Source of the DNA: Octopus vulgaris
Lineage: Eukaryota
Direction of reading: 5' to 3'
Length of the DNA stretch: 64,000 nt
NCBI GenBank assembly: GCA_951406725.2
Contig: OX597816.1
Coordinates: 36,580,001 to 36,644,000 of the forward strand
A program made the position numbers and the translations under genes. Of this stretch, positions 7,901 to 58,192 are shown one piece after another. The stretch's first letter is position 1. Each line of letters begins with the position of its first letter. The notes beneath the pieces were generated by a model, which saw only the letters and a program-made list of their open reading frames with translations, was not told the DNA's origin and searched no databases.

Positions 7901-10399
7901 TATAGTTATCATGTATAAAAGGCTTGTGCTTTCATAAAACTAAGGAAGATGGCCTTCAAAGCCAGATGTCGCTTTGAAATCGGGTACTGGTTTGTCTGAG
8001 TTTCTGTCTCTATAGAAAGCTTATTTTATATTTAAAGCTATAGAGATCGATTCAAAACATCACTAAATTGAGTACAGAATTTTGAATGCAAGTTTCAAGT
8101 TAAAGCCTCACATTAAACCAGGAATCTTGAATAATAATATTTCATTCTTTTTTTCAAATAAATACTTTCCTGAAATTATTTTATTTTCCTTTTATCATTC
8201 TTGTAGACCTACCTTCTTTGTGACCAGTTATGTGTGCCTTACTCTTTTCAGTGACTGTAGCTTCAATGATTTCTAGAATGTTCTCTGGCCACAAAGTTAT
8301 TTCTATGCATTAAACCCAGAGTGCGTACTATCTTTACATTTCGTATATATTGAATTAATCTTTATAATTTTTGTAGTGTTAGCTGCTCTAATATCCAATA
8401 TTTACTTTTTTTATAATTTATTATTCTAAACCGCATTATTATTACATTATCGCCTTTAATTTATTCATGTGGAAGGATTGAATCTTAAATAATTTGGAGT
8501 TTATCGGTATTAGTTTTACGACTAACGTGTCAATTTCTTTAAGACTTGTTTGTCATAGGTTAATATAAGATATATCCGTTGCTTTTTTAATGAAACTATT
8601 ATGTTGCTTTATTTGCATTCTTCTATGCTACAACCTCTTTCGCCGTATGTTAATTCAAATAATATTATGTTAGAGTATATATTATAATTCAAGTGGTATA
8701 TATTTAATGATGTGTTTTGTTGTATTTCTGTCAAAACGTAAGTCATTTACGTTTCACATGCAATGTATCGGAGCTGCTTTCAGGAAAATTTTTAACACAA
8801 TTTATATCTAATTTCAGATATACCTTCTAAATAACGAGTTTTCCCTTACGCCTGATATTTTATTAACATCAGTGGCGGTGATGCATGTAACATGCATCTC
8901 TATGCTTTGTTGAAGGAATTTCTGTGACACAAATGATGACCCGCAAACAGCTTTACCCTCTGAATAAATTCTCTAGTAATTTACCTTTTATTGAACCTGA
9001 TGCAAGAAATTACATCTTTCGATATCTGAAATATTTTATTTCGCTGTAGGCCTCTTAATTTGTTGGTGATGCAGGCACAGTTTAACATATAATTTGACCG
9101 TCCTTGTGTATCAACACTTTCATTAGTTGCAATTTCACATGGTTGGTGAAGCGAATAATAAGTCATGTAAGATCGCTAAAACGTCTGTCATAATTAAGTT
9201 CCATTTGATACATTCCGACATCATATATTTGACGACAAAGTGGGATTTACCTTGTACTAGAGTTGTTTAAAGATTTGCGAAGCGAAATATAATGTAACCG
9301 AAAATATAGCCAGCGTATTTGTGATACAATAACAATTCTACTGCCAAAACATTATTTGGAAAATTGACATTCGAAATGCAAGTATCTCAATCACATGTGA
9401 ATTTTGTCATTTCCAATTATCATCGACACAAATTATATTATAATTTTATCAGGTATATGTTACTATTCTGAAATTACACAATACTAATACAATTATTAAA
9501 GTCTGAGTCGTGCAGTTCAACATACCAGAAGTGCACACACATAAATTTGATAACAGAGCAGAAAATCGATAAATAAACGTATATTTACATTCTTTATTAC
9601 ATATATACATTCAATTTATAAATAGAAATGTCGCCCCAACAAAATTATCTAACCATTTCATTGATATGATTATATAAGTGAAGCTAATAAGCAAAGAGTA
9701 AACAAATTAATTTAATATAACTTTAATAGAGTGCCACTAAACACCAAGTAAATGTAGGAAAAACTCAATTTCCATAAAGAATAAATATAGTGACTGTTAC
9801 TTAATATTATGAAAACAAACGTAAATACCACCAGAATGAACTTTGCTTTATTCCTTTCGTAATTGATATAATATAATGCGAGCAAGTACCGGGGTCGATA
9901 AAATATATCAGCAGGTATTTGTGTTCATCGAATCGATTCCTCTACTCTTTAAACATTGTGGAACCTCTGTATACCCTAAATTAAATGCTGGGAAAACAAC
10001 AAAAATTTCTTCTACAATTATGAAATACAATTCATATTAAATAACAAATCCCGAAACCCATTCATAAAAGGAGCCACAACACATGTCCCCCATAAACACC
10101 TCCCCAAAACACACCTCAAACGCACATACTATTCAACCCCCCTTCACACAGGACACAACCTCCCCAACCCTACAAAAAGCCCTTTCCTCCCCGAAAAAAT
10201 TCAAACAAAATCCACCTCAAAACTTGGATCTTTAATCATTCTAACCCTCCTCCCCACCGACAAAATGCATCAAGAACCCCCATACACTAGGAATTACCCC
10301 CTTCTCAATGCTCCCCACTCTCATACTAATATCAAAAAAGGTATCCTACCCACACCTATACATAGAATCCCATACAGCCCTCCCAACCAACACCCACAA

Positions 10400-10828
10400 T
10401 CCTAGAAATCTGGACACCTTTTCCACATCTCCTTAATGGAAAACTGGAAAAGATACCTAGATGATCGTTTCATCATATGGAAAGAATCTCATGAAAATCT
10501 TCTGGAATTCAAAACCACGCTTAACAACATACATCCCAACATTCAATTCACTATGGGAGTCAGCAAACATCATCTCCCTATTCTTGATCTCCTAATTATA
10601 AAAGCACCTCACAACCAAATCAAAACCAACATCTACCACATACCTACAAACTCACAATACTCACAAACTCACAAACTTCCTTTCATGCCACCGAAAACAC
10701 ACCAAGATAAATATCCACTTCAACTTAGTTAAAAGGATTTGCATCATTGTCTCGGACCCAACCATTCGAGAAGTAAGCCTTCAAGACCTCAAAAAAACAA
10801 TATTACAAGGCCAATATCCCTACACAAT
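10400..10828 (+). mobile_element. Penelope-like element RT C-terminal fragment (pseudogenised)
   Basis: WKRYLDDRFIIW..FKTTLNNIHPNIQFTM..LPILDLLI..TNIYHIPTNSQ, then frameshifted SCH.KHTKINIHFNL..RICIIVSD; homologous to 57044-58130. Confidence 0.85.
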
Positions 10829-11462
10829 ATCCCTAGGAAGCATCGAACGCCTCCTGATAGCTTTGACACGGTGTCCCTAGATGCAGTTCCGGCGGCCGGG
10901 GGTGTTTGTCTCCCCTTCGTATATGTATATAAGGACACATGGAAAAAATGTGTCAAAGCTATCAGGAGGCGTTCGATGCTTCCTAGAGCTATACAGCGGT
11001 GGTGTACCCCCTACTGTCACTTTCTTGTTAGATTGACAGTATGCAACCATTCTATCGCCCCACCACCGTACATGTCTCTACGAGAGATTTAGAAATTCAA
11101 TACTTCTTATTTTGATAATCAGTGAATAAACTTCACTGAATATAGGTATATACAATTACGAAGTCGAGGCAAATATCACCAGCTGACCGGTGTCTGCTAC
11201 TCTAGGCCGATGAAAGACAACGATCCTGAAACACAGTGTCCCTAGATGCTGTTCCGGCGGCCGGGGGTGTTTGTCTCCCCTTCGTAGGGGAAAATGTGTC
11301 AAAGCTATCAGGAGGCGTTCGATGTTTCCTAGGGCTATACAGCGGTGGTGTACCCCCTACTGTCACGTTCTTGTTAGATTGACAGTATACAACCATTCTA
11401 TCGCCCCACCACCGTACATGTCTCTACGAGAGATTTAGAAATTCAATATTTCTTATATATAT
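10829..11462 (+). mobile_element. Retrozyme-like cassette A: about 1.6 tandem copies of a 345-365 nt monomer with a short inverted 5' piece
   Basis: gtgtccctagatgc at 10871 recurs at 11236; 10829-10869 is the reverse complement of an internal segment; 3' end runs into (TA)n; contains an HHR. Confidence 0.8.
11201..11246 (+). ncRNA. Type I hammerhead ribozyme, variant core CCGAUGA
   Basis: tctagg-CCGATGA-aagacaacgatcct-GAAA-cacagtg-TC-cctaga; stem I perfect 6 bp and extends to a rod over 11157-11286; GUC cleavage triplet; stem II imperfect. Confidence 0.75.
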
Positions 11463-45179: not shown

Positions 45180-45226
45180 GACTTGTATCACCTGTGATTT
45201 CATACCTCTGTATTCATCAGCAAGCC
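45180..45226 (-). ncRNA. Canonical type I hammerhead ribozyme
   Basis: Minus strand ggcttg-CTGATGA-atac agag gtat-GAAA-tcac ag gtga-TA-caagtc; all three stems pair; AUA cleavage site. Confidence 0.9.
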
Positions 45227-45639
45227 TGGACGTATCATAAATAAACGACCCTACCTCGTCTAAGCCGAGCAGCTAACTGATCAACATCAACGAAGCACAT
45301 GGGTGAGTTTACATATATTACATCCGGTAAATGGCAGACTTTTACGAATTGCATTTCGGGAAAGGAAAAGTTTTTTCGGAATAAAAATTTAGCAATTAAG
45401 GACAACTTCTTAATAAGGAAAACTTAACAAGAAATTATCGGGTAGATAGCGTGAAAGACCTCATAAGAGAAAAAAATTTCGAAAATAATTCTTTCTTATT
45501 GAACATATTAATTTATATATAGAGGGCATTATTATACATACATGCCACACGCTAAGAGGGACAAAATTAGTCATTTCTACCAAAAGTTTTACTAATCCCA
45601 CCGAATGCAATTTTTCAAAGTAAGACATTTAAAAATATG

Positions 45640-45686
45640 GACTTGTATCACCTGTGATTTCATACCTCTGTATTCATCAGCAAGCC
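45640..45686 (-). ncRNA. Canonical type I hammerhead ribozyme (second copy)
   Basis: Identical to 45180-45226, 460 nt upstream on the minus strand. Confidence 0.9.
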
Positions 45687-47910
45687 TGGACGTATCATAA
45701 ATAAACGACCCTGCCTCGTCTATATATATATATATATAACCTCTGATATATTTGCGTAGTTTATATAGCTTATAAATGGTTCCTAATCTCTCGCATAAAA
45801 TTCTGTATAATACAATATTATATTTTATATTTATAGTTACACATATTTTATATTTATAGTTACACATTTTAAATATTTGTGTATCTATATTTGACATCTT
45901 TATACATTTGTATATCTTTTTATATACTTTCCAAGTGTTTGTAAGTTATAATTTTTTTATAAGGTCTTTTTATATAATTTACTGGATATGGGAATCCATA
46001 TTCTAGCATATTTTTAATAATGCATTATTCATTAAATGCTTACATGCCCAAATATATATATATCCGCATGAACATTAAGTGCTAGATTTATCCTATCAAC
46101 GTTAATGCATCATTCAACCTGCTGCTTGGATTTACTTGAGATTATAAGTAAGCATTTACACCTTCACGGAAATACGAATAAACACCATACCCTCCGAATT
46201 AACATGAACTATGAACCTTATACTTGTATCTACTTTCAATTTTCTGTCTAGAACATCCCTGCACACCCCTGTTGTCTCTGACGGAATACTCAGTGCATGG
46301 AGATGTCGATAAACATATTGAAACATATCGCCGTAATGTGTTAACCACCATGTTTGAGCAAGGAAATCATTATTAAATTCCAAGTTAGCTCAAACAATCG
46401 GGTGGATTTGAGCTGATATTTTTTGTATCATATTTTTTTCACATGTTTACTATGTTGAGTCGGTTCTAATGGTCAGCGTTGATAGCGACGGATGATCGAG
46501 CATCAGTATTATCATCAGTGTATCCGTTTTGACCGTCTACGTAATTACAAGGAAAAGGAGTACCGACGTAGATTCATTAAATATATTTCAATCATATTCA
46601 CATATATACGCACAGTATATATGTGAATATACACGGAAGCGAATAATATACGCACTAGTATGTTTACTTACAAGCAAGTATAAACTCTCATACAAATATG
46701 TATGTATATATTTATGTAGGCATCTGTAGGAACCATGACAGAAAAGAATTTAACTATCTTTATTAGAAGACGTAAAAATGTAAAATGCATTCCGCTGAAT
46801 CTACTGATGACAACATTTCGAAATTAAAGTCTGATTCCAGTGATACAATGCTATCTCATTATTTCATCTAACTTCAATTACAGCGCAGATATACGTTTCC
46901 TGCTCTGTTACAGGTAATAGATTTTCTGATATATTGTATCTCATTTCGAATGTAAAATACATATTAAACAGGGCTTGTTATTGATTCTGTCATAATGTAT
47001 TACATATCGGTATCTCGCTAGGAGTTAACAATGCGCAAATATTCTCTGGCGTCAGTTATGGAATATCCATGAACATGCTCGGTGACATAGACGACGTAAT
47101 TATTCAATGCTTTGCTCTCACTCTCACGTTTTGCTGAACTGAATAGACACTAGGTTTAACATAGACATAACTGAAGATATCCTTGAAATCAAGATTCATT
47201 TCCTTGTCCTGTTGTGTTACTGCCAGTTTCAATTTAATTCCCAATACAGAATCCTTAGCTTGGACAAACCTGATTCAAAAAGCACAGTATAATTTTTAGA
47301 AATCAATGTCGAATAGAAAACTGGCTCCCGTCGGGAAAATACCCGGCAATATTTGCTTGCAGCCTCTTTATCTTTTTGAGCATACATACAGCACGGATAC
47401 ACGTTGCGTTTAATCCTTTTCAAATCCATACAATTAGAACAGATCAGATTAATGAAACATGGATTAGCGTTATCGACTATACCCTAAAGAAATATCTTTT
47501 ATGAGAAGGAGACTGTGACGATTAAAGTGATCAGATGAATGCGCAGGTTTAGTAAAAATTATTTAAAATTTTCAAAGATCATAATGAAGATAGAATCATT
47601 TTGTCCTTTCAAAATCTAATTTTATTCTATTTTAAAAGAAAAGTGGGACGGAGCAATAGAGTAGATTAGGATTTCTCAGGGTTTTATAACAAGTAAAACA
47701 GAGGCCGTTTCATCATAACCAATATCTAATAAGACCATGCAAATGGGATTGAAAACAATTAAATAAAATAACTAAGTCGTGTTTAATAGTAAGTTTTACG
47801 GTGATTGAACATGTTAATCACGTTGAATTTCGACAGATAGTGAACGTAATCACATTTTACGATTTCAGTCATAAAACGTAACCTTAATCTCACGATAGGT
47901 TAGTGAGGTG

Positions 47911-55927: not shown

Positions 55928-55930
<3 letters not shown>

Positions 55931-56099
55931 ACATAAGGGACTAAAGCCATCTGAATATGGCTAGGGACAGGGCAGGGTGGTGGGGGTGTTACTGTTGCAT
56001 TTAGCCCCAGGCGAACATCGACGTCACCAGAAAGGCTCGACACCGTCACGGTGCCCTAAACCTGCAAAGGGAGGTAATTCCCCGATGAAGCGGAAACCA

Positions 56100-56145
56100 C
56101 ACACGGACCATGGTTTCAAGGTGTATTGCCTATCATCGGCGTGTG
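56100..56145 (-). ncRNA. Type I hammerhead, CCGAUGA variant
   Basis: cacacg-CCGATGA-taggcaatacacctt-GAAA-ccatgg-TC-cgtgtg; extended stem I spans 56061-56184. Confidence 0.8.
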
Positions 56146-56459
56146 GTAGGCCTCCGCTTCCTCGACGAATTCTCACTCTGCAGGATTTTCTTATATAGAT
56201 TTTCAAGCAAAATACATTTGCTGATTTCGAAAATCTGTTCGAAAGCAATAATAATTCTCTAAAAGGGATATAGACAGTAACTGCTCGATAACATAAGGGA
56301 CTAAAGCCATCTGAATATGGCTAGGGACAGGGCAGGGTGGTGGGGGTGTTACTGTTGCATTTAGCCCCAGGCGAACATCGACGTCACCAGAAAGGCTCGA
56401 CACCGTCACGGTGCCCTAAACCTGCAAAGGGAGGTAATTCCCCGATGAAGCGGAAACCA

Positions 56460-56505
56460 CACACGGACCATGGTTTCAAGGTGTATTGCCTATCATCGGC
56501 GTGTG
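56460..56505 (-). ncRNA. Type I hammerhead, CCGAUGA variant (copy 2)
   Basis: Identical core, 360 nt from copy 1. Confidence 0.8.
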
Positions 56506-56670
56506 GTAGGCCTCCGCTTCCTCGACTAATTCTCACTCTGCAGGATTTTCTTATATAGATTTTCAAGCAAAATACATTTGCTGTTTCGAAATCAGCAAAT
56601 GTATTTTGCTTGAAAATCTATATAAGAAAATCCTGCAGAGTGAGAATTCGTCGAGGAAGCGGAGGCCTAC

Positions 56671-56716
56671 CACACGCCGATGATAGGCAATACACCTTGA
56701 AACCATGGTCCGTGTG
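56671..56716 (+). ncRNA. Type I hammerhead, CCGAUGA variant (inverted copy)
   Basis: Same motif read directly on the + strand; rod spans 56632-56755. Confidence 0.8.
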
Positions 56717-56931
56717 TGGTTTCCGCTTCATCGGGGAATTACCTCCCTTTGCAGGTTTAGGGCACCGTGACGGTGTCGAGCCTTTCTGGTGACGTCGATG
56801 TTCGCCTGGGGCTAAATGCAACAGTAACACCCCCACCACCCTGCCCTGTCCCTAGCCATATTCAGATGGCTTTAGTCCCTTATGTTATCGAGCAGTTACT
56901 GTCTATATCCCTTTTAGAGAAATTATTATTG

Positions 56932-56976
<45 letters not shown>

Positions 56977-57043: not shown

Positions 57044-58130
57044 TCAGCCATTTAATTTGGGGAAGAACTTAGCTATGAAACATTTTTCCATATTCCTCCC
57101 GAAAGAAGTGTCGTTCTTCGGACATTTGTAGAAGGGAAAGATCTTAAATTTTTCTTTCTCCACACGTAGCTAGGTGTGTACTTAGTGGTATTTTGCGTAG
57201 TTCTTCCTGCCGAATATGTTGTCGGTGAATCCTGGCTCGCTGGCACAAAGAATTAGCAGTTTCACCTACGTAATTCTCCTTGTATGTGGGGCAGGTTATG
57301 CAGTATATAACGTTCTGCGTCTTGCAGTTCATACCTGCATTTACTTTGAATACGTAACCACTTTTAAATCTCATCTCTCTGTTTCCCTCTATGTATTTGT
57401 AGGTGGGGTTGCTGCAGATCCCACATCTACCATCTCCGCACTCTTTTGCCAAGAATTCCGTTTTAGTTTCTGAAGAGAATTTCGCTCTTGTTAGATGTTT
57501 CTTTAGGTTTTTGTCCTGTCGTCTACTGTTTTTTATGCTATATTTGTTTAATATGTTTTTCATTTTGGGGCTTTGTAAGGCTATTGGTAGGTTTGAATGT
57601 ATGGTTTGGAAGATGTTGGTAACTCCAGGGTTGTGCGTGTTTATAAAAGGGATAATGTTTTCTTTGTTTTTTGTTTTGGGTGTCCTGAGTTGTGCGATGT
57701 CTAGTTTTAATGCTCTTGTGATTCCATTTTCTATTAGTTTAAGGGAGTATTTTTGCTCTAGGAGCAAGTTTTTGAGTTCATCTAGTCTTATTAGTCGTGT
57801 TTGTGAATCAGTTACTATGCTACATATTCGTCTTGCCATACTATATGGGATGTTTCTTTTTTTGTGGGATGGGTGGCAGGAATGGAAATTTAAATATTGT
57901 TGTGCGTCAGTTTTTTTTTTTGTAGTGGATGTCTGTTGTGACGATGGAGTTGTGTATTTTGATGTTGATGTCTAGGAAGGGAAGTTCGTTGTGGCTGGTA
58001 TCTATTGTGACGTTGATAGATGGGTGCATCGTTTTGAGGATGTTGTGGAATGTTCGTAGATCTTCTTCTGATCTGTTTCAAAAGATGAGGCAGTCATCGA
58101 GGTAGCGTTTCCACTTTTTCTTGATGTCTC
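57044..58130 (-). pseudogene. PLE reverse transcriptase C-terminus plus GIY-YIG endonuclease (frameshifted)
   Basis: KWKRYLDDCLIF, LPFLDI, YLNFHSCHPSHKKRNIPYSMARRICSIV, Cys linker CGDGRCGIC, NVIYCITC..YVGET...R..H; ends FPFYK..EKCFIAKFFPKLNG*; ORF-track entry 57144-57839 is the intact middle. Confidence 0.92.
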
Positions 58131-58192
58131 CTCTGAAGTCGTGTTCGAAGACTTTCCCAATTTCATCGCATATACGAATGTATATATATATA

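Follow-up and report, generated by a model that had tools for sequence, protein, structure and literature searches.

What is the pair of small RNA hairpins that recurs in two different hammerhead repeats of Octopus vulgaris, and has it been selected for a function of its own? The question arises from a stretch of 64,000 nucleotides (hereafter the window), in which two cassettes, A and C, carry the pair at corresponding places. The parts of the two cassettes, and the elements that adjoin them, are the following.

10876..11240, plus strand: family A retrozyme monomer, from predicted cut site to predicted cut site, 365 nt here against 364 nt in the family
10934..10954, plus strand: hairpin 1 (HP1) of cassette A, with a 6-bp stem; the family loop is 8 nt, against 5 nt in the other ten families
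10957..10990, plus strand: hairpin 2 (HP2) of cassette A, with a lower stem of 4 bp, an internal loop, an upper stem of 6 bp and a variable apical loop
10996..11069, plus strand: helix P4 domain of cassette A, P4 (8 bp) enclosing hairpin HP4b; cccaccacc lies in the 3' arm
11118..11129, plus strand: 5' arm and loop of HP7 in cassette A, a candidate PSE whose motif is common to the U2 snRNA promoters of this genome
11201..11246, plus strand: type I hammerhead of family A, with C at core position 4 and a predicted cut after 11240; without an Rfam match
11241..11453, plus strand: second, partial A monomer, its HP1 5' arm lost by an 18-nt deletion and its terminus T1 in a TA run
10827..10877, minus strand: inverted short 5' piece of cassette A, a copy of the HP1/HP2 region
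9983..10825, plus strand: remnant of a Neptune-type Penelope-like element adjoining cassette A (context, outside the module)
56761..56777, plus strand: hairpin 1 of cassette C
56779..56813, plus strand: hairpin 2 of cassette C
56821..56902, plus strand: helix P4 domain of cassette C, with cccaccacc (56832-56840) in the loop
56671..56716, plus strand: type I hammerhead of family C, with C at core position 4 and a predicted cut after 56710
56584..56932, plus strand: right arm of cassette C, terminus T1 in a TA run
55928..56591, minus strand: inverted left arm of cassette C, about 1.8 monomers, terminus T2 in a TA run
56363-56415 and 56003-56055, minus strand: two further module copies in the left arm of cassette C
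57050..58158, minus strand: remnant of a second Neptune-type family beside cassette C (context)

Cassettes A and C are, as far as their features can be read from the DNA, non-LTR retrozymes with a type I hammerhead and monomers of 364 and 360 nt, respectively. Of the features of such elements, a type I hammerhead in each unit, short non-coding tandem monomers (150-400 nt in elements of this kind) and many dispersed copies are present. Copies of family A are about 90% identical to the query, and those of family C are 99% identical and form long tandem arrays; both families are dispersed genome-wide. Searches with the Rfam covariance models found no family at gathering score within the window, and around the two cassettes nothing meaningful at E≤10 (best E 1.9), ribozymes and module being unmatched alike. 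Another repeat of the window, cassette B (45180-45720, minus strand), is a 460-nt AT-rich hammerhead dimer with a canonical core, located in a TA run; the module was searched for in it and is absent, and cassette B is unrelated to the superfamily described below. The window also holds an abundant SINE-like repeat, with at least 13 copies between 1531 and 48273, some of them as tandem pairs.

Both hairpin sequences quoted in the original prediction are found in the window, at 10934-10990 in cassette A and 56761-56813 in cassette C, and the proposed two-hairpin folding is recovered (z of -5.5 for A and -2.0 for C against 200 shuffles), with the antisense strands folding worse. Parts of the drawing had to be amended: two pairs of the A copy in the window, the seventh of hairpin 1 and the T-A that tops the lower stem of hairpin 2, are not those of the family majority, and the C hairpin drawn with a 1-nt loop has a loop of 3-5 nt. 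The two modules do match in position, at equal distance from the type I hammerhead in monomers of similar length, and lie about 57-114 nt past its predicted cut site. They had been placed downstream of the hammerhead rod; instead, the module sits atop the rod, the 5' strand of which pairs with sequence immediately ahead of the next hammerhead.

It had also been claimed that most other sequence has diverged between the two monomers. This is not the case, as the A and C consensus monomers can be aligned end to end, with a score of 190 against 85.5 ± 12.6 for 300 shuffles (best shuffle, 121). Identity between A and C amounts to 37 of 52 columns in the module, 170 of 295 outside it (P = 0.09) and 25 of 39 in the hammerhead. 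On this non-significant excess alone, the similarity of the modules could be a neutral residue of common descent, or chance; we consider this very improbable in view of the covariation, the strand bias and the depletion of shared variants found over eleven families, which are presented below.

Nine families (D, E, F, G, H, I, J, K and M) were added to A and C from the flanks of fetched loci and from 40 arbitrary 10-kb stretches, so that the expectation of further families is borne out; discovery was by DNA searches and flanks in a genome of 2.8 Gb, and the superfamily thus comprises at least 11 families. Family F is known from one copy and family I from one to three partial copies, and few copies stand behind the hammerhead half of family D. 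The 11 monomers measure 351-364 nt, are 46-83% identical and have their arms in one common order. The type I hammerhead core and the stem I-III pattern are present in all of them, with C at core position 4 in families A, C, D and M. Each family search returned between 486 and 4228 first-look candidates, tandem arrays reach at least nine units at one locus, and six of the 40 arbitrary stretches contained a member of the superfamily, a frequency that would correspond to tens of thousands of loci. In families G and K (loci L140, L151 and L260-L288) the hammerhead core has U3...A8 in place of C3...G8, a compensatory variant that is on record for the hammerheads of Penelope-like elements (PLEs) in the accessible text of PMC4209133.

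Among the contigs of four sequencing runs guessed to be RNA, the 360-nt monomer was self-closed in three runs, as would be expected of tandem DNA and of a circle equally; TA-junction contigs also occur among the contigs of these four runs. The exact module pattern was searched for elsewhere and matched 64 metagenome and at least 120 viral stretches, none of them extending past the pattern, with a best profile score of 10.8 bits. As the similarity is confined to the pattern, we take these matches as chance. The collections are animal-poor, and the result has no bearing on other molluscs.

Most monomers fold as a basal rod closed by hammerhead stem I, with a junction on top from which the predicted arms HP1, HP2, P4 (enclosing HP4b), HP5, HP6 and HP7 extend. 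The single-sequence folds of C, J and I deviate in part from this common fold, and the HP1 and HP2 segments fold locally in all families with the exception of HP1 in I, whose copy is degenerate. Relative to shuffles, the folding of every monomer is far better (z from -3.5 to -12.8, 25 shuffles each). Since the monomers fold as a rod with a multi-arm junction, the two-hairpin module is, in this predicted structure, two arms of a larger conserved junction, of which HP5 and HP6 are predicted arms only. The original notion of a free-standing module thus has to be given up, given that homology and fold span the whole monomer and that P4 and HP7 covary as well. A second shared element had been seen in the sequence cccaccacc. 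It does occur in both monomers; its places are non-homologous, at monomer position 183 in A, in the 3' arm of P4, and at position 122 in C, within a loop. With only three of 11 families containing it, we rejected it as a common motif.

In the alignment of the 11 families, the module is the best 58-column segment, with a mean identity of 0.65 against 0.50 outside, 0.58 in the hammerhead core and 0.64 in HP5, the means being taken from 49 of the 55 family pairs after exclusion of six close pairs. The comparison with the rest of the monomer, which had been proposed as a check, is therefore in favour of the module. The stems also covary, in agreement with the compensatory changes first noticed between A and C, and the check for covariation likewise turned out positively. 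The P values come from an in-house tree-based null, different from R-scape, and are biased towards structure because arms were placed by anchors, one bulged base was removed in C and D, and best register decided which 3' arms P4 and HP7 were given; on this basis, HP1 is paired in 64 of 66 cells with double changes in two of six pairs (P 0.04), the HP2 lower stem in 43 of 44 with two of four (P 0.04), and the HP2 upper stem in 65 of 66 with four of six (P 0.009). For P4 the corresponding values are 85 of 88 cells and seven of eight pairs (P 0.0003), stronger than for the module; HP7 has 54 of 55 cells paired and three of five pairs doubly changed, HP4b 51 of 55 and two of five, and hammerhead stem I covaries in six of six pairs. 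No covariation was found for HP5 over the 11 families (36 of 44 cells paired, P 0.31). A MAFFT alignment of 11 real copies was made without fitting, and part of HP2 is misplaced in it for C and J; even so, 92% of 165 cells are paired and seven of 15 pairs doubly changed, against 27-53% paired cells in slid controls on the same alignment. Covariation therefore supports the module, and is not unique to it. The module stems contain 11 G-U cells against one A-C cell, which points to the sense RNA as the strand that would be folded.

The hairpins could be purely architectural, keeping the monomer compact and helping rod and hammerhead to fold, in which case their high identity would merely reflect short stems that tolerate few changes. 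The strong folding of every monomer relative to shuffles would fit this, as would the conservation of several other arms and the free variation of the apical loops. However, stem I and P4 change freely (six of six and seven of eight pairs), while HP1 has changed on both sides in only two of six, and we regard the architectural account as unlikely.

Selection was assessed in the seven families with enough diverged copies, after removal of 17 overlapping or duplicate loci and with CpG transitions left out. Variants shared by subfamilies are depleted in the module, with 17 in 362 positions against 149 in 1814 elsewhere (P = 0.02), where elsewhere means all other positions, linkers included, rather than other helices. 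Private mutation rates, in contrast to shared variants, were equal inside and outside the module in all seven families, and deletions of at least 5 nt common to two loci were searched for in these families and not found. Since shared variants are depleted while private mutation rates are alike, selection probably acts on the source elements, before insertion, instead of on the inserted DNA. Conservation, covariation and variant depletion agree in indicating that the module is a real, selected RNA structure of a retrozyme superfamily, and the central claim of the original prediction, a selected cis-acting element, is upheld by the analysis.

The GU(U)CGAU apical loop of HP2, said to be kept, is limited to families A, C, E and F, that is, four of 11. 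A 7-nt loop of another sequence occurs in family J, which is the nearest sister of C (76%); the loop is 3 nt in D, I and K and 4 nt in G, H and M. Because the long loop occupies two separate clades of the tree, two gains would be more parsimonious than retention. An 8-nt palindrome over the 5' side of the HP2 internal loop is present in D, H, I, K and M and not in A, C, E, F or J.

According to another proposal, on which these loops bear, the module would act as an internal Pol III promoter, at the DNA level or in the manner of a tRNA (T-loop/B-box). Judged against the B-box/T-loop consensus, the loop of family A fits once and the other ten families do not; loops vary between 3 and 7 nt, and the register of the HP2 stem is incompatible with a tRNA T-arm, the closing pair being off. 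Moreover, all 11 monomers contain T runs of at least 4 nt, and the G-U bias indicates an RNA strand. We therefore rejected a T-loop or type 2 Pol III promoter, and hold a promoter role of the module to be extremely improbable, even though a Pol III promoter is described for a schistosome hammerhead satellite in the accessible part of PMC2220036.

A promoter may instead lie elsewhere in the monomer. Of 20 U2 snRNA loci that we fetched, 18, representing three promoter types, have in common a short motif (-57 to -61). Every one of the 11 families has a similar motif, about 12 bases long, which makes up the 5' arm of HP7 together with its loop and lies at constant spacing. In repeats with an snRNA-type promoter, a PSE-like motif is expected about 55-60 nt ahead of the start. 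The match (about 12 bases, few independent promoters) is suggestive of a U2-like promoter, from which transcription would start about 25-33 nt upstream of the hammerhead core; a generic profile scan did not pick out the HP7/U2 motif. With such a motif located elsewhere in the monomer, an internal Pol III box is unneeded. HP7 seems to be doubly used, at 11118-11129 and 56591-56602, as a covarying hairpin and as the U2-like motif. In the two remaining U2 loci (L324 and L331) the promoter motif is missing from a common upstream sequence, which may be an element that inserted at the first base of U2.

The ends of inserted copies were found to be fixed. Of 336 distinct 3' ends, 266 are no more than 9 nt away from one of two positions, against an expectation of about 11%; these termini are located about 168-179 nt (T2, its positions being derived from the same data as the end counts) and about 219-235 nt (T1) after the cut site. 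In all 85 loci with both end types, overlapping loci being counted, the two ends are on opposite strands, as in cassette C, and many copy ends run into TA repeats, fewer in old families. Inverted arms and a tail of 30-40 nt are given as the Penelope footprint in the accessible text of PMC8557442, and the fixed ends on opposite strands match what such a footprint would be.

Two Neptune-type families of Penelope-like elements with open frames of 753 and 775 aa, ending in TA runs, are present in the genome, and remnants of these two different families adjoin cassettes A and C, respectively. The junction between Neptune and cassette A in the window may be chimeric, or may result from insertion followed by deletion. 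The tails of both families contain what look like minimal hammerhead cores. The module model, which it had been proposed to run against the tails of autonomous elements, and a whole-monomer profile were both unmatched in the tails of the two families (8 long and 9 short loci for the first, 29 loci for the second, and a further 7 loci), and no pLTR sequence common with an autonomous partner was found among the two families. Matches at Neptune loci that could have been taken for a tail-borne module are inserted retrozyme copies. A third PLE open frame, on the minus strand at L131:1410-1820, breaks off within its endonuclease domain and continues directly as a family G monomer, both ends of which are close to the predicted start site; unrelated T-rich sequence follows. 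A template switch, or insertion at the start site, is possible there.

Taking into consideration that the module (i) lies between the hammerhead and the first start site, (ii) is the most sequence-constrained part of the monomer and (iii) is selected before insertion, we tentatively favour, at somewhat less than even confidence, the reading that HP1 and HP2 are part of an RNA surface bound by a borrowed Penelope-type protein before copying starts. Each monomer would be transcribed from the U2-like motif, with the start placed as above, and two hammerheads would free a unit-length RNA that, as the literature suggests, is then circularised. This RNA would fold into the rod topped by HP1, HP2, P4/HP4b and HP7, the arms that covariation supports. 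Copying would start at two fixed sites 55-125 nt 3' of the module, which are the positions where the genomic copies end, on opposite strands. Selection on the module would take place in the source RNAs, prior to insertion, because inserted copies mutate at an equal rate in the module and elsewhere, and the selected function would be the putative binding of the Penelope protein. Against this reading, neither Neptune tail carries the module. Moreover, the P4/HP5 domain lies between both start sites and covaries more, and would thus be a closer candidate for positioning the starts. Cassette B lies in a TA run without a module, and the module is therefore dispensable for some such elements.

The same hairpins could be the target of a host protein through which the circular RNA is stabilised, exported or silenced, for instance by a block of the hammerhead within the circle, and would then take no direct part in reverse transcription. 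In HP1 and the HP2 lower stem, sequence is conserved as well as pairing, and the conservation of HP1 with few changes would fit a host protein equally well; the lack of a counterpart in the tails of the two Neptune families also agrees with it. The available text of PMC7229834 proposes that circles are blocked in vivo by a cause other than self-pairing, and that of PMC2837043 mentions an amphibian retrozyme RNP. However, the module lies in the stretch from hammerhead to start sites, which overlaps with the minimal RNA of the one Penelope protein tested, and we regard the host-protein account as rather unlikely.

Should a Penelope-type protein be the partner, the junction with HP1 and HP2 might further be the first recognisable RNA-binding domain for a Penelope reverse transcriptase (RT), a natural equivalent of the domain by which telomerase RNA binds its RT, and parasitic circular RNAs would have evolved it without copying the tail of their partner; we consider this extension doubtful. 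If it were true, the 11 natural variants would map the bases read by the enzyme and the placement of the two start sites. Penelope-type enzymes are the sister group of telomerase, and the borrowing of these enzymes by retrozymes has so far only been proposed. For the question of how they choose their RNA and start inside it, a covariation-supported fold that has persisted through several amplification waves, together with its pair of fixed start sites and its natural variants, offers a short and defined substrate for binding and initiation assays. Binding of a host factor instead would make the module the first non-ribozyme element to be defined in the circles of animal retrozymes.

Metazoan non-LTR retrozymes have been described as repeats of 350-390 bp in mussels and 330/350 bp in the axolotl (Cervera and de la Pena 2020, PMC7229834). 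According to the accessible text of that paper, the octopus elements, known here from genomic sequence, share with them tandem non-coding monomers (351-364 nt), a single type I hammerhead per unit whose helix III is short, strong self-pairing, many dispersed copies and Penelope-like elements in the same genome. That text presents single-sequence minimum-energy folds and species-specific sequences, whereas a covarying multi-arm domain and fixed ends are found here. The frog retrozymes (Li, Clavereau, Pollet 2026, bioRxiv 10.64898/2026.07.22.740005) resemble ours in co-occurring Penelope-like elements and in having tandem as well as solo copies. In frogs, 24 of 57 families resemble known elements, 21 of these being PLE-annotated and matching at pLTRs; no such match to the tails of the two Neptune families was found here. 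The accessible part of the frog study leaves structure outside the hammerhead unanalysed, in contrast to the whole-monomer fold considered here. In the cave-cricket repeats, the hammerhead is the most conserved part, as far as PMC2837043 could be consulted, while in the octopus a non-ribozyme region exceeds it.

With respect to transcription, newt satellite 2 is reported to have an snRNA-type promoter (Coats et al. 1994, cited in PMC2220036). Going by the available text, the combination of a hammerhead repeat with an internal snRNA-type promoter is shared; promoter use would here be predicted from the HP7 motif, which lies outside the two-hairpin module.

As for the start sites, the green anole Poseidon element is the closest in kind: its reverse transcription initiates at two internal sites downstream of the hammerhead, the anole Penelope protein nicks both strands of AT-rich DNA in vitro, and the minimal RNA lies between +20 and +172, around the start sites (Frangieh et al. 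2024, PMC11167929). Two internal sites past the hammerhead, involvement of both strands of AT-rich DNA and inverted arms are likewise features of the octopus retrozymes. Poseidon differs in being autonomous, and its sites are 30-40 nt apart and about 85-125 nt past the cut, against 45-60 nt apart and 168-235 nt past the cut in the octopus; in the accessible text, its binding motif is unmapped and an HP1/HP2-like structure undescribed. The literature searched, subscription papers on salamander satellite 2 excepted, contains no description of the module or of a conserved non-ribozyme fold in animal retrozymes. The octopus elements would thus belong to a known kind, the non-LTR hammerhead retrozymes, and what appears to be new in them is a selected, covarying fold outside the ribozyme.
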